From a virus, in UHGV virus genome UHGV-0086135: a stretch of 64,000 bases of DNA; one strand, written 5' to 3'. Below the pieces are notes generated by a model. That model was given only the letters and a program-made list of their open reading frames with translations, had not been told where the DNA came from and did no database searches. How positions within the stretch are numbered: the first letter of the stretch is position 1; the number at the start of each line of letters is the position of its first letter. Below, piece by piece: positions 4,318-36,838 of the stretch. The translations under genes were made by a program, and so were the position numbers.

Positions 4318-4346
4318 TTTACATCCCTGTTCTTCCGTGGTACTAT
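4318..4346 (+). promoter_or_regulatory. early sigma-70 promoter in stem-loop/promoter cassette (copy A)
   Basis: -35 TTTACA, 17 nt, extended -10 TGGTACTAT; follows gene 43 terminator. Confidence 0.6.
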
Positions 4347-4380
4347 ACAACTATCAACTGATACGGATTTGGAGAATAAA

Positions 4381-4638
4381 ATGAAAATTGTTTATGGTTG
4401 TTTAGCAGCGTGTTTAGTTGCATTAGCAGTTGTTCTAGTTGCATTAGCAGCTGTTCCATTTATTGATATTGAAAATGACACTCAGAATGTGATTGAATCT
4501 AATACTGTTATTCACATGAATGGTAAAGTATCAACAAAAATTGATGATAATCTTCATATGAATACTAATGGAACGCTTGGTGTTCAATTAGGTAATACCT
4601 GTGTAAGCACTACTGGAGTAATTACTACTTGTATTTGA
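4381..4638 (+). CDS. small secreted or membrane protein (N-terminal hydrophobic signal-like segment)
   Basis: ATG at 4381 with GGAG 6 nt upstream in the conserved cassette leader; ORF-track start 4369 is a TTG inside that leader. Confidence 0.5.
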   Translation: MKIVYGCLAACLVALAVVLVALAAVPFIDIENDTQNVIESNTVIHMNGKVSTKIDDNLHMNTNGTLGVQLGNTCVSTTGVITTCI

Positions 4639-6182: not shown

Positions 6183-6814
6183 ATGTGCCACATGTTTATA
6201 AGTATAAACATCCTAAAACTAAAAAGTGGTATATAGGAAGTCATGATGGTCACAACCCAAATTATGATGGTTCGGGTGTAGTTTGGCAACATGCTAAAAA
6301 GAAATATGGAATAAAATCCTTTAATAAAGAAATATTATATGAAGGACCAATGTTTAGACAGGTTGAAGAAATTATTTTAACTTGTTTAGATGCTGCTAAT
6401 TGTCCGGATTCATATAATTTAAAGAATGAAGCATGGGGAGGAAGTTTTCCAGGCAAATTAAATGGAATGTACGGTAAAAAACTATCTCCAGAAGAAAGAT
6501 ATAAGTGCGGAAATGCCTTTCGTGGAATCAAGCGTCCTGATCATTCTAAAAGAATGAAAGGCGAAGGTAATCCAATGTATGGTAAAAATGAGCAGGCATA
6601 TGGAATTATAAATCGAGCAAAGGAAAATTCTGGTAAAACTTATGAAGAAATTTTTGGCGCAGAAAAAGCTAAAATAATTAAAGAAACGATGTCTAAAAAT
6701 CGTAAAGGAAAACCTCATAATTTGATAGAAAAAATATGTCCGCATTGCGGACTAAAAGGACGTGGGCCAAATATGACAAGATACCATTTTGACAAATGTA
6801 AGGCACTTAAATGA
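6173..6814 (+). CDS. freestanding GIY-YIG homing endonuclease (Seg/I-TevI-like)
   Basis: N-terminal VYKYKHPKTKKWYIGS (GIY..YIG-like) then R/E/N catalytic residues, NUMOD-like GKKLSPEERYK and GKNEQAYG repeats, C-terminal Cys4 zinc finger CPHCG..HFDKC; overlaps gene 42 stop. Confidence 0.7.
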   Translation: MEVNVPHVYKYKHPKTKKWYIGSHDGHNPNYDGSGVVWQHAKKKYGIKSFNKEILYEGPMFRQVEEIILTCLDAANCPDSYNLKNEAWGGSFPGKLNGMYGKKLSPEERYKCGNAFRGIKRPDHSKRMKGEGNPMYGKNEQAYGIINRAKENSGKTYEEIFGAEKAKIIKETMSKNRKGKPHNLIEKICPHCGLKGRGPNMTRYHFDKCKALK

Positions 6815-23586: not shown

Positions 23587-23611
23587 AGTTTAAAATTTTT
23601 TCATAAAACTA

Positions 23612-23640
23612 TATACATCAGTAGTTGATTATGGTACTAT
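23612..23640 (+). promoter_or_regulatory. degenerate cassette promoter copy
   Basis: TATACA, 17 nt, TGGTACTAT; downstream leader resembles the 4.3 kb and 31.6 kb copies. Confidence 0.35.
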
Positions 23641-23758
23641 ATCAATATCAACTACTGATACAGAAAATAACTTGGAGAATAAAATGGAAAATTTGCCAAA
23701 GGTGCTGCCACTCTTCTGAAACGCATCGCTCCAATGTTCAATTAACGAGGAAATTGTA

Positions 23759-31587: not shown

Positions 31588-31616
31588 TTTACATATCACA
31601 AGGACTGTGGTACTAT
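31588..31616 (+). promoter_or_regulatory. early promoter in cassette (copy B)
   Basis: -35 TTTACA, 17 nt, TGGTACTAT; leader identical to copy A over 43 nt. Confidence 0.65.
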
Positions 31617-31650
31617 ACAACTATCAACTGATACGGATTTGGAGAATAAA

Positions 31651-31857
31651 ATGTTTACTACGGCTGAATTAAAACGAGCAAAAGCTAAGAAAGGGCAAGG
31701 AAAATATAAAGCTGAATTAGTTAAAGAACTTCAGTTTGCTGAGGCTGAATTGAATTCGATGATTATTCAAAATGCTCCAGAAACTGAAATTGCTCTTAAA
31801 CGTATTGCGAATAAATGTCTTCGTGATACAATCGTCGATCTTTTAGCGGATTATTGA
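31651..31857 (+). CDS. hypothetical protein (68 aa)
   Basis: ATG 31651 preceded by the conserved cassette leader; ORF-track start 31552 lies upstream of the promoter. Confidence 0.5.
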   Translation: MFTTAELKRAKAKKGQGKYKAELVKELQFAEAELNSMIIQNAPETEIALKRIANKCLRDTIVDLLADY

Positions 31858-32312: not shown

Positions 32313-32342
32313 TTTACAAGACTGTTCCTCTGTGGTACTATA
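32313..32342 (+). promoter_or_regulatory. early promoter in cassette
   Basis: -35 GTTTACA, 18 nt, TGGTACTAT. Confidence 0.6.
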
Positions 32343-32369
32343 CAACTATCAACTACGGAGGAACAGAAA

Positions 32370-32483
32370 ATGAAAAAGATTGTTAAAGCTATATGGAATG
32401 TAGTTATAATACTAGTAGTTTTGAGTATATTCCCAATCGTTTTAATGATTGATGTATTAAACGCTTACTTTGGATTTATGTGA
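32370..32483 (+). CDS. tiny hydrophobic peptide (37 aa)
   Basis: ATG 32370 with GGAGGA SD behind early promoter; single TM helix. Confidence 0.4.
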   Translation: MKKIVKAIWNVVIILVVLSIFPIVLMIDVLNAYFGFM

Positions 32484-33918: not shown

Positions 33919-35247
33919 ATGCAACTGAATAATCGCGATTTAAAAAGTATCATTGATAATGAAGCATTGGCTTATGCTATGTACACGGTTGAAAATCGTG
34001 CTATCCCAAATATGATTGATGGATTTAAGCCAGTTCAACGATTTGTTATTGCTCGAGCTCTTGATTTGGCACGAGGAAATAAAGATAAGTTTCACAAACT
34101 CGCTTCTATTGCAGGTGGTGTAGCGGACCTTGGATATCATCATGGTGAAAACTCTGCACAAGACGCGGGCGCTTTGATGGCTAACACTTGGAATAATAAC
34201 TTTCCTTTGTTAGATGGTCAAGGAAACTTTGGTTCTCGTACCGTTCAAAAAGCAGCGGCAAGTCGTTATATTTTTGCTCGTGTAAGTAAAAATTTCTATA
34301 ACGTATATAAAGATACTGAATATGCTCCGGTACATCAAGATAAAGAACACATTCCGCCTGCTTTCTATTTGCCTATTATTCCTACTGTTCTTCTTAACGG
34401 TGTTTCCGGTATTGCAACTGGTTATGCAACTTACATTCTTCCTCATAGCGTTTCTTCTGTCAAGAAAGCTGTATTGCAAGCTCTTCAAGGAAAGAAAGTA
34501 ACTAAACCGAAGGTAGAATTCCCAGAATTTCGCGGTGAAGTCGTTGAAATTGACGGTCAATATGAAATTCGTGGAACGTACAAGTTTACTTCACGAACTC
34601 AAATGCATATCACTGAGATTCCGTATAAGTATGATCGTGAAACTTATGTGAGTAAAATCTTAGACCCGCTTGAAGATAAAGGCTTCATTACGTGGGATGA
34701 TGCTTGTGGTGAGCATGGTTTTGGCTTCAAAGTTAAATTCCGTAAAGAATATTCTTTGAGCGATAACGAAGAAGAACGCCATGCAAAAATTATGAAAGAC
34801 TTCGGGTTGATTGAGCGTCGTTCCCAGAATATTACTGTTATTAATGAGAAAGGAAAGCTACAAGTTTACGATAACGTAGTTGATTTAATCAAAGACTTCG
34901 TTGAAGTTCGTAAAACTTATGTCCAAAAACGAATTGATAACAAAATCAAAGAAACTGAATCGGCATTTCGTTTAGCCTTTGCCAAGGCACATTTCATTAA
35001 GAAAGTAATTTCAGGTGAAATTGTTGTACAAGGTAAAACTCGCAAAGAACTGACCGAAGAACTTTCTAAAATTGATATGTATTCTTCTTATGTTGATAAA
35101 CTAGTTGGAATGAATATTTTTCATATGACTTCCGACGAAGCAAAGAAACTTGCTGAAGAAGCTAAAGCTAAAAAAGAAGAAAACGAATATTGGAAAACTA
35201 CTGATGTAGTTACAGAATACACCAAAGATTTAGAGGAAATCAAATGA
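33919..35247 (+). CDS. 52: DNA topoisomerase II medium subunit gp52 (GyrA-like)
   Basis: 442 aa as T4 gp52; GyrA-like N-terminal region. Confidence 0.9.
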   Translation: MQLNNRDLKSIIDNEALAYAMYTVENRAIPNMIDGFKPVQRFVIARALDLARGNKDKFHKLASIAGGVADLGYHHGENSAQDAGALMANTWNNNFPLLDGQGNFGSRTVQKAAASRYIFARVSKNFYNVYKDTEYAPVHQDKEHIPPAFYLPIIPTVLLNGVSGIATGYATYILPHSVSSVKKAVLQALQGKKVTKPKVEFPEFRGEVVEIDGQYEIRGTYKFTSRTQMHITEIPYKYDRETYVSKILDPLEDKGFITWDDACGEHGFGFKVKFRKEYSLSDNEEERHAKIMKDFGLIERRSQNITVINEKGKLQVYDNVVDLIKDFVEVRKTYVQKRIDNKIKETESAFRLAFAKAHFIKKVISGEIVVQGKTRKELTEELSKIDMYSSYVDKLVGMNIFHMTSDEAKKLAEEAKAKKEENEYWKTTDVVTEYTKDLEEIK

Positions 35248-35393
35248 GTCCATTCATAGGTATTACAAGCGCTGCATTAGTATCTGGTGGCATTTTACTG
35301 GCGGGTTTAGGTGTTGTTCCTGCCGTAGCAGGAGGTCTTCTTGCGTTCGGAATTCAACGTGTTATCATGATAGTTATCACAGTCATGCAGTAA
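35244..35393 (+). CDS. small membrane peptide (49 aa)
   Basis: ATGA overlap with gene 52 stop; hydrophobic; followed by terminator hairpin. Confidence 0.4.
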   Translation: MSPFIGITSAALVSGGILLAGLGVVPAVAGGLLAFGIQRVIMIVITVMQ

Positions 35394-35398
35394 TTTTA

Positions 35399-35424
35399 GG
35401 GAGAGCCGAGGCTCTCCCTTTTTT
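35399..35424 (+). terminator. intrinsic terminator after gene 52 region
   Basis: GGGAGAGC-CGAG-GCUCUCCC hairpin plus U6. Confidence 0.75.
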
Positions 35425-35451
35425 ATTTCAAAAATTTTTTTCACAAAACGG

Positions 35452-35480
35452 TTTACAACCAAAGCATACTGTGGTACTAT
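35452..35480 (+). promoter_or_regulatory. early promoter in cassette (copy D)
   Basis: -35 TTTACA, 17 nt, TGGTACTAT; preceded by terminator hairpin. Confidence 0.65.
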
Positions 35481-35529
35481 ACAACTATCAAATAAATGAA
35501 CTGAAACAAACAACCCGGAGATACAAAAA

Positions 35530-35757
35530 ATGAAATTTAAAATCGAAAACGAAATCGTTAAAGCTAAAAATGCTCTGACTGCTAACAAACTGGTTGTAGA
35601 TGGTATTGAATATGATATCTGTGGAGTTCGTGAAGAAAAACCTGGTGTTCTGACTTTCTTCACAATGATTTTTAAATTTAAAGGTGACACAGAATTCAAA
35701 CAGTTTGATTTTGCCCATGAAGACGAAATCGAAGTTCGTAATCTGAACATTAAGTAA
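35530..35757 (+). CDS. hypothetical protein (75 aa)
   Basis: ORF behind cassette promoter, GGAG SD. Confidence 0.5.
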   Translation: MKFKIENEIVKAKNALTANKLVVDGIEYDICGVREEKPGVLTFFTMIFKFKGDTEFKQFDFAHEDEIEVRNLNIK

Positions 35758-35796
35758 GTACTTTATTAGAGCTCTTGAAAAAGAGTGCAAAAAAGT

Positions 35797-35825
35797 GTTT
35801 ACTTCTGCTTTAAACATGATACTAT
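35797..35825 (+). promoter_or_regulatory. early promoter upstream of motA (copy E)
   Basis: -35 GTTTAC, 17 nt, -10 TACTAT; leader shares CTATCAAATAAATGAACTGAAAC with copy D. Confidence 0.6.
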
Positions 35826-35862
35826 AGACCTATCAAATAAATGAACTGAAACGGAGATTAAA

Positions 35863-36498
35863 ATGTCTAAAGTAACTTACATCATCAAAGCTTCTAACGA
35901 TGTTCTGAATGAAAAAACTGCTGCGATTTTAATTACCATTGCTAAGAAAGATTTCATTACAGCTGCAGAAGTTCGTGAGGTGCATCCAGATTTAGGTAAC
36001 GCAGTAGTTAATAGTAATATTGGGGTATTGATTAAAAAAGGTCTGGTAGAGAAATCTGGTGATGGATTAATCATTACAGGAGAAGCTCAGGATATTATTT
36101 CAAATGCAGCAACTTTATATGCACAGGAAAATGCTCCTGAACTACTGAAAAAACGAGCAACTCGTAAAGCTCGTGAGATTACTTCCGATATGGAAGAAGA
36201 TAAAGACCTTATGCTAAAACTTTTAGATGAAAATGGATTTGTTCTTAAAAAGGTTGAAACTTACCGCAGTAACTATCTTGCTATTTTAGAAAAACGCACT
36301 CATGGAATTCGCAATTTTGAAATTAATAACAATGGAAATATGCGAATTTTTGGATACAAAATGATGGAACATCATATTCAGAAATTTACTGATATCGGAA
36401 TGTCATGTAAAATCGCTAAAAACGGTAATGTGTATCTTGACATTAAACGCTCGGCAGAAAACATTGAAGCGGTAATCACCGCAGCATCTGAACTGTGA
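35863..36498 (+). CDS. motA: middle-transcription activator MotA
   Basis: 211 aa as T4 MotA; position next to gene 52; own early promoter. Confidence 0.75.
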   Translation: MSKVTYIIKASNDVLNEKTAAILITIAKKDFITAAEVREVHPDLGNAVVNSNIGVLIKKGLVEKSGDGLIITGEAQDIISNAATLYAQENAPELLKKRATRKAREITSDMEEDKDLMLKLLDENGFVLKKVETYRSNYLAILEKRTHGIRNFEINNNGNMRIFGYKMMEHHIQKFTDIGMSCKIAKNGNVYLDIKRSAENIEAVITAASEL

Positions 36499-36508
36499 GG
36501 AATAAATA

Positions 36509-36838
36509 ATGAACAAGTTAGAAATTGTTAATGAACTTCGTCGTTGTGCAGAACCCACTCAAGAGGGGTGGGATATCTGGTATCATGGAGCTTATCTTGG
36601 AACTATCGTAAAGATTAAGACTGGTAAATACATGATTATTCGTGAAAGTAAAGATGCTCCAGTAGGTATTCGCAATAATTTTATGGCGGCGATAAGTTCA
36701 TTTACGGATGCAGCTTACGAAATTTACCTTGCCGATTATAAAGAATTCCAGGAATCTCAACCAGTTATTCGCTCAATTGGTGTTAACAAAGCTCAACAGA
36801 AAACTCTGTGGCAGCGTATTAAAGGATGGTTTAAATGA
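36509..36838 (+). CDS. hypothetical protein (109 aa)
   Basis: ORF with SD. Confidence 0.5.

Follow-up and report, generated by a model that had tools for sequence, protein, structure and literature searches.

The closest described counterpart of the locus that we analyze here is the PeSL (promoter-early stem-loop), a composite unit that clusters at indels and begins with an A/T-rich region plus a stem-loop, continues with a promoter (TTTACW N17 TAYWAT in the PST/T4 pair) and ends with a Shine-Dalgarno (SD) sequence and ATG (Comeau et al. 2014, PMC4122927). Recombination between PeSLs excises or inserts open reading frames (PMC2839356; PMC4122927), and the crossovers of PeSL mini-circles have been mapped to the interval from the -10 element to the SD or ATG (Arbiol et al. 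2010, PMC2839356). The main text of these two papers (that is, without figures and supplements) describes neither the slot upstream of motA nor the 75-aa early gene, ORF75, that is discussed below, and the phage PST itself has a T4-type motA locus. Here we describe a locus at which two identical leader sequences bracket ORF75 upstream of motA; these leaders probably mark both ends of a mobile cassette for expression of a small gene, moved by PeSL-type shuffling between a Dhakavirus-like donor and a T4-like genome.

The window (the whole stretch of 64,000 nucleotides analyzed, from UHGV virus genome UHGV-0086135) is the early region of a Tequatrovirus, a T4-like phage, and early transcription runs along its + strand; the closest database record, at 99%, is that of Escherichia phage ph0021. 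The gene order (gene names are taken from the T4 RefSeq annotation) is gp52 (33919-35247), a motA.1 homologue, a terminator hairpin, early promoter P1, ORF75, early promoter P2, motA, arn.4 and downstream genes, and the features from the motA.1 homologue to motA all lie on the + strand. The motA.1 homologue (49 aa, 35244..35393, phrog_3487) has the same position as T4 motA.1 and is the final gene of the upstream transcription unit. It is followed at 35398..35419 by an intrinsic terminator hairpin with a T-run (9-bp stem with 6 GC pairs, dG -17.6 kcal/mol, z = -3.4, identical in T4), which forms the stem-loop of the first PeSL unit, and by P1 (35420..35480), with an upstream region that is almost pure A/T (35420-35450), a -35 element GTTTAC (35451-35456), a TGn element (35472-35474) and a -10 element TACTAT (35475-35480); the consensus scan reports it as TTTACA-17-TACTAT with TG. 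ORF75 (35530..35757, phrog_10955), the cargo of the cassette, is preceded by a GGAG that we read from the sequence at 35517..35520. A weak stem-loop belonging to the second PeSL unit (GCUCUU-GAAA-AAGAGU in the RNA fold, 35771..35786) and P2 (35797..35825; -35 GTTTAC at 35797-35802, TGn at 35817-35819, -10 TACTAT at 35820-35825) separate it from motA (35863..36498; Pfam MotA_activ E = 5e-61, MotCF E = 1e-66), which encodes the activator of middle transcription and is 94-100% identical to T4 motA in nucleotide sequence. The second stem-loop has a 6-bp stem and no T-run and is not significant alone (z = -0.66); its counterpart in JS10 and in contig L036 is a perfect 8-bp stem (GAGCTCTT-GAAA-AAGAGCTC), and the window's version may be a degraded PeSL stem-loop. 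Both promoters fit the PeSL pattern TTTACW N17 TAYWAT, and both units combine A/T-rich upstream sequence with an SD and a start codon on the 3' side (GGAG/ATG at 35517/35530 and 35853/35863). Immediately after motA, the four-way alignment also reveals a short island of unusually high cross-genus conservation at the start of arn.4 (window 36509-36575), where the first ~50 nt are 47/50 identical between JS10 and either T4 or the window, with neighboring segments at ~60%.

A preliminary description of this DNA had reported a motif behind the -10 element at both sites, and this is borne out: a 23-nt leader repeat, L (CTATCAAATAAATGAACTGAAAC), stands at 35485..35507 (copy 1) and 35830..35852 (copy 2), 2-4 nt away from the positions first given (35482-35507 and 35826-35850). 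There are exactly two copies in the 64-kb window, both on the + strand and 345 bp apart, and each begins 5 nt past a TACTAT -10 hexamer; no further copy was found in the window, even at <=3 mismatches, and 100 dinucleotide-preserving shuffles yielded 0 matches. Copy 2 abuts the GGAG of motA and copy 1 ends 9 nt ahead of the GGAG of ORF75. When the -10 region is counted in, the ungapped repeat extends to 36 nt at 92% identity (repeat family D7).

One reading of this similarity is that it reflects the extended T4 early-promoter consensus and has no specific history. T4 early promoters do have a consensus beyond -35, TGn and -10 (PMC2988021), and the first 7 nt of L, CTATCAA, are not specific to the pair, being the extended consensus of one early-promoter class that has eight members in the window (4317, 23611, 31587, 32312, 35451, 35797, 52101 and 52826). 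The six other + strand promoters of this class read TACTAT(a/t)(c/a)(a/c)(a/c)(c/t)TATCA(a/g), however, and part from one another directly after TATCA(A/G), whereas the other 16 nt of L, ATAAATGAACTGAAAC, are identical in the pair and occur only at the two L sites in the window, indicating that the repeat exceeds the promoter consensus. We therefore reject consensus alone, on the strength of the shuffles and of the comparison with the other promoters of the class, and regard its probability as negligible. When the two units are aligned with one another, the similarity does run 16 nt past the promoter consensus, but upstream of the -10 element (both upstream of -35 and between -35 and -10) little is common to them beyond the consensus hexamers.

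The two promoters differ in affiliation. P1 is T4's own motA promoter: the only differences from T4, Lutter and ph0021 are upstream A/T runs that are longer or shorter by 1-2 nt, and it belongs to a six-member early-promoter repeat family of the window (D1). P2 (GTTTAC-17-TACTAT with TGA, with GCAAAAAAGT lying 5' of it) has its sole copy in the window here, and is the motA promoter of Dhakavirus-like phages (PSD9, L020 and JS10) and the frd.3 promoter of IME08, these sequences being identical if A or T is allowed at position 7. A T4 immediate-early unit is expected to start transcription about 7 nt past the -10 element, with no need for phage proteins. From this promoter geometry, the transcription starts would lie at about A35487 and A35832, and the sequences of P1 and P2 suggest that both are active.

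We compared the window with T4-type relatives and with JS10, a Dhakavirus phage. In T4, Lutter and PST the terminator is the same and P1 is essentially identical as far as CTATCAA, after which come a different, 27-nt leader (CTACTGATACAGAATTACGGAGATTAG...) and motA; ORF75, P2 and L are absent from their motA locus, which thus differs from the window by a 345-bp indel. The cassette is found in about 130 of the ~660-710 matching phage records, and about 396 are of the T4 type. JS10 has ORF75 upstream of motA in the same slot (98.7% aa identity), in the arrangement P2-L-ORF75-SL-P2-L-motA, where the flanking 56-nt direct repeat (GTTTAC to GAAAC, that is, P2 plus L) contains 1 mismatch and has the same 345-bp spacing as in the window. 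Sliding identity over the four-way alignment puts the gp52/motA.1 flank (to 35492) at 94-100% against T4 and at about 55-75% against JS10, and the same values hold from about 35889 onward, in motA and beyond, whereas positions 35493-35841 are identical to JS10 at 341/350 and have no T4 counterpart to align. Summarized over the two flanks, the identity to T4 is about 96-98%. The segment at 35492..35860 (leader, ORF75, stem-loop, P2 and leader) is thus absent in T4 and ~97% identical to JS10, a mosaic identity profile indicating that ~370 bp were imported as a block by recombination.

Both junctions of this block can be placed within a few nucleotides. The left junction lies inside CTATCAA (35485-35491): 35482 and 35484 are the last bases specific to P1, and sequence specific to the cassette starts at 35492. 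The right junction, read from the comparison of T4 with JS10, lies inside AAAATGTCTAAA (about 35859-35871), where the window has TTAAAATG of JS10 and not TTAGAAAATG of T4, but then AAAGTAAC of T4 and not AAAATTAC of JS10. For a single double crossover the tracts of identity at the junctions would be very short, with 7 nt on the left (17 nt if 2 mismatches are allowed) and about 12 nt on the right, which speaks against so simple an origin. A solo P1-L-motA junction, the expected product of L x L excision, was also sought, but none of 663 records matched a synthetic query for this junction over its full length in one piece; there is thus no evidence that the two L copies recombine with one another in Tequatrovirus.

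The slot between gp52 and motA is variable in several groups of phages, so that the flanked ORFs are present, absent or replaced between close relatives, both across the 345-bp indel and in the Dhakavirus-like and Moonvirus-like slots. In PSD9, a Dhakavirus phage with an empty slot, P2 is followed by another leader and motA, and contig L020, also with an empty slot, has P2, L and motA without ORF75 (a solo P2-L-motA unit); GGAGATACAAA, the motA SD in empty-slot Dhakavirus phages, stands before ORF75 in the carriers. P2 is native to the motA of empty-slot Dhakavirus phages and to frd.3 of IME08 and occurs once in the window, identifying P2 and L as Dhakavirus elements. The occurrence of the same leader without any duplication, as in L020, had been proposed as grounds against a cassette; such genomes do exist, but they show where the leader is native and do not refute a cassette insertion. 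Other genomes carry other cargos: contig L036 (rc 6231-6620) has P2, leader, a 71-aa ORF (MNKMKNTQ...), a perfect stem-loop, P2, leader and motA, and in contig L035 (1041-1410) the same promoter units enclose a 73-aa ORF (MKTLNINS...), again in the slot between gp52 and motA. In the L019 (1497-1830)/L035 genome, L heads an unrelated 84-aa ORF at another locus. Moonvirus and related contigs have 0-3 small ORFs between gp52 and motA, most with an early promoter of their own, and in Merlin one of these is an ORF75 homologue; the homologues in Gelderlandvirus and Jiaodavirus (Melville, K65PH164) are at other loci, where an early promoter again adjoins the gene on either side.

A separate variant is found in contig L011 (the IMG/VR copy of Yersinia phage vB_YepM_ZN18; minus strand, about 2070-2165), where the A/T-rich region and the -35 element of P1 are lost, the terminator is joined directly to ...AAAGCATACTGTGGTACTATA, and one AAAC unit of the ORF75 leader is lost as well. 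On this sequence, ORF75 of L011 would have at best an extended -10 promoter.

These comparisons bear on a second reading, in which the promoter-leader unit of motA was duplicated in tandem within the lineage of this phage, and ORF75 was then captured or emerged de novo. Two tandem promoter-leader units 345 bp apart with an identical leader are what this would produce, and in JS10 the whole unit is doubled, so in-situ duplication or mini-circle insertion must have occurred somewhere in Dhakavirus history. In the window, however, the -35, spacer and upstream parts of the two units are unrelated, P1 is the T4 promoter and P2 the Dhakavirus promoter, and the block shares ~97% identity with a phage that in the flanks reaches only ~65%; moreover, ORF75 has homologues in four other lineages and hence is old. 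We consider local duplication very improbable. The preliminary description, which saw related promoter-leader units in tandem and suggested insertion of ORF75 by cassette duplication, was correct about the repeated leader, about the position of ORF75 between two early units and about its insertion, which holds relative to T4, Lutter and PST, and the unit is indeed doubled in JS10; P1 and P2 are nevertheless not duplicates of one another, and the window bears no sign of in-situ duplication.

From the directly observed repeat, indel, mosaic identity, donor-type arrangements and alternative cargos, we propose the following history for the cassette. The native state of T4-like Tequatrovirus genomes is terminator, P1, the 27-nt leader and motA, and in the Dhakavirus-like state motA has its own unit, made up of a terminator or stem-loop, P2 and L. 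The gp52-motA slot accepts small ORFs, which thereby become bracketed by two copies of the unit. A JS10-like donor would then have recombined with a T4-like genome, crossing over on the left in TACTATA.A.CTATCAA, the stretch common to the early promoters of the class, and on the right in the SD/start region of motA (AAAATGTCTAAA), so that ~370 bp substituted for the 27-nt leader of T4. As a result, ORF75 would be under the T4 motA promoter fused to a foreign leader, and motA under the imported P2 with L; each gene would form an independent immediate-early unit with a strong sigma-70 promoter (UP, -35, TGn and -10) and a GGAG SD, joined by a leader that is short, rich in A and unstructured. Because the left crossover lies downstream of the -10 element, the hybrid unit has a T4 promoter and a foreign leader, and only the leader is duplicated here. 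The direction of transfer was most probably from Dhakavirus-like to T4-like, judged only by where P2 and L are native, and the crossovers themselves would be the work of recombination between the short common tracts.

A third reading concerns the reason for the identity of the two leaders. L might be a selected cis-regulatory RNA (a translational repressor site, an S1-dependent enhancer or another early-phase regulator) that couples the expression of ORF75 and MotA and is kept identical by function. The 23 nt are identical between the two copies in every carrier examined, L precedes three genes in Dhakavirus-like contigs (motA, ORF75 and the 84-aa ORF), and ORF75 or a homologue adjoins motA in three genera. 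The whole cassette is >=97% identical among carriers, however, so the identity of L is uninformative on selection. Moreover, motA in related phages uses at least four different leaders (the alternatives being the 27-nt leader of T4, AACAACAGAGTGAAAT of PSD9 and AAATAAATGGTTATC of IME281), indicating that L is not required for motA. The two leaders are predicted to be unstructured and fold no better than shuffles (RNAfold, z = +1.3 and +0.5), and a search of Rfam with the leaders found no family above threshold, the lone match being a sub-threshold, partial CrcZ on the minus strand over the terminator hairpin (23 bits versus a gathering score of 95); we reject a structured RNA or riboswitch on these results.

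Sites of RegB/S1 cleavage also bear on this question. In early mRNAs these conform to a single-stranded 11-mer, GGAGRAYARAA (Durand et al. 2006, PMC1702504). T4 motA RNA is a good RegB substrate (PMC1702504) that is cleaved inside its SD (PMC2988021). The motA site of the window (GGAGAUUAAAA, 35853..35863, which includes the motA SD) matches the consensus at 10/11 positions, in a leader predicted to be unstructured, as does that of T4 (GGAGAUUAGAA, likewise 10/11); the ORF75 site (GGAGAUACAAA) matches at 9/11, deviating at positions 7 and 8. RegB would be expected to cleave at the motA site of the window, and, since the SD of motA retains the RegB/S1 consensus, MotA synthesis should remain a short burst. 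Sequences 5' of GGAG stimulate RegB/S1 cleavage modestly, which would give L a possible role, but no specific information 5' of GGAG, where the repeated leader lies, is required (PMC1702504). Altogether, we judge a cis-regulatory role for L to be unlikely, and we read L as a generic A-rich early leader, with an identity that reflects recent common origin and not a dedicated regulatory element.

Leader sharing is, in fact, not peculiar to ORF75 and motA. The T4 motA leader (ATCAACTACTGATACAGAA...) has 19 nt in common with the leader of an unrelated early gene behind the window promoter at 23611 (window 23611-23690, compared with about 1780-1821 of L001, the T4 record), indicating that such sharing is general among early genes. 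The window also contains a different promoter-leader module, of 47 nt from GTGGTACTATACAACTATCAACTGATACGGATTTGGAGAATAAAATG to the ATG, which is 100% identical at 4337-4383 and 31607-31653, 27 kb apart, and has a third copy at 32332-32378 at 72% (repeat family D3). This module is likely to be another PeSL subfamily, and is presumably the first class of duplicated leader that the preliminary description implied. Short reading frames are also seen within the leaders: L holds a two-codon mini-ORF, AUG AAC UGA (35495-35503 and 35840-35848), with no SD and ~8 nt from the predicted 5' end, and the variant leader of IME281 holds AUG GUU AUC GGA GAU UAA, overlapping the motA SD. These mini-ORFs are probably incidental.

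The spacer of P2 contains a perfect MotA-box core, TGCTTTA, at 35806-35812, only 7 bp from the -10 element. In middle promoters the MotA box stands 11-13 bp from the -10 element. We can therefore reject TGCTTTA as part of a standard middle promoter, given its distance of 7 bp instead of 11-13 bp and with no TAnnnT at the right distance. The motif (T/C)GCTT(T/C)AA occupies this position of the spacer in motA promoters from Dhakavirus, Moonvirus and three further T4-like contig groups (L004, L008, L020, L026-L032), and the leaders diverge among the promoters that have it; the P1 spacer of T4 has AAAGCA (TGCTTT on the opposite strand). It is conceivable, although we think it improbable, that TGCTTTA of P2 and the common L form a module that places the early promoter of motA, as well as co-resident cassettes such as that of ORF75, under feedback from MotA. 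If that were true, the carriers of ORF75 would have swapped the control of the master middle-gene activator, beyond gaining a passenger gene.

ORF75 is present in 168 records, and homologues that are 57-70% identical to it occur in Moonvirus, Gelderlandvirus, Jiaodavirus and one Enterobacter phage; an alignment of six sequences has 42 invariant columns. Judged by this conservation, by its place in phrog_10955 and by its predicted fold, ORF75 is a real, conserved gene, and the occurrence of homologues at 57-70% in four other lineages indicates that it is old and did not arise de novo. The AF2 model of the protein is a six-stranded barrel (pLDDT 89, pTM 0.75) that most closely matches EF-P/eIF5A domain I and other SH3/KOW-like barrels (Z <=7.7, 10-16% identity), and its viral structural neighbors are all uncharacterized. 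The fold is confidently predicted to be an SH3-like barrel, and as modeled it is too generic for functional inference. One of the records, 'Pseudomonas phage PsgM02F' (OR584013.1; host Pseudomonas coronafaciens), has ORF75 at 100% identity in a Tequatrovirus-sized genome of 165 kb, a host label that is unexpected for a relative of T4-like coliphages.

The locus provides a base-resolved example of small early genes moving between T4-type genera, for which both parental arrangements, the empty slot and alternative cargos are available, and in which the crossover intervals are narrowed to 7 and about 12 nt within promoter/leader elements. In roughly one in four sequenced Tequatroviruses, motA, the master regulator, would be expressed from a foreign promoter and leader, and this could matter when transcription results obtained with T4 are extrapolated to therapeutic T4-like phages.

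Compared with the T4 early promoters of the 'uber' UP/-35/TGn/-10 class (Hinton 2010, PMC2988021), both units share GTTTAC, a spacer of 17-18 nt, and TGn with TACTAT, and P1 has the long A/T-rich upstream region; that consensus, however, consists of the recognition elements of RNA polymerase, whereas the L repeat sits outside it, in the transcribed leader. By analogy only, the arrangement also resembles integrons, in which small single-gene cassettes likewise occupy a fixed slot behind a promoter and the cargo differs from genome to genome. Here, however, there is no integrase, attC or attI, each cassette brings its own promoter, and the exchange presumably proceeds via general recombination of the phage on short repeats.

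The likeness to PeSLs is the closest. The same composite unit is present here (A/T-rich region, strong sigma-70-like early promoter, SD and ATG, behind a stem-loop that is a strong terminator in the first unit and weak in the second) and flanks a small ORF at an indel between close relatives, and the crossovers in the window lie between the -10 element and the SD/ATG, as do the mapped mini-circle junctions. The differences are that the exchange here crosses genera (most probably from Dhakavirus to Tequatrovirus), that the unit is a hybrid in which a foreign leader follows a T4 promoter, leaving the leader as the only repeated part in the genome, and that the second stem-loop is degenerate. The motA-ORF75 cassette is thus a new and well-resolved instance of a known shuffling mechanism, and neither a new mechanism nor a new kind of element.
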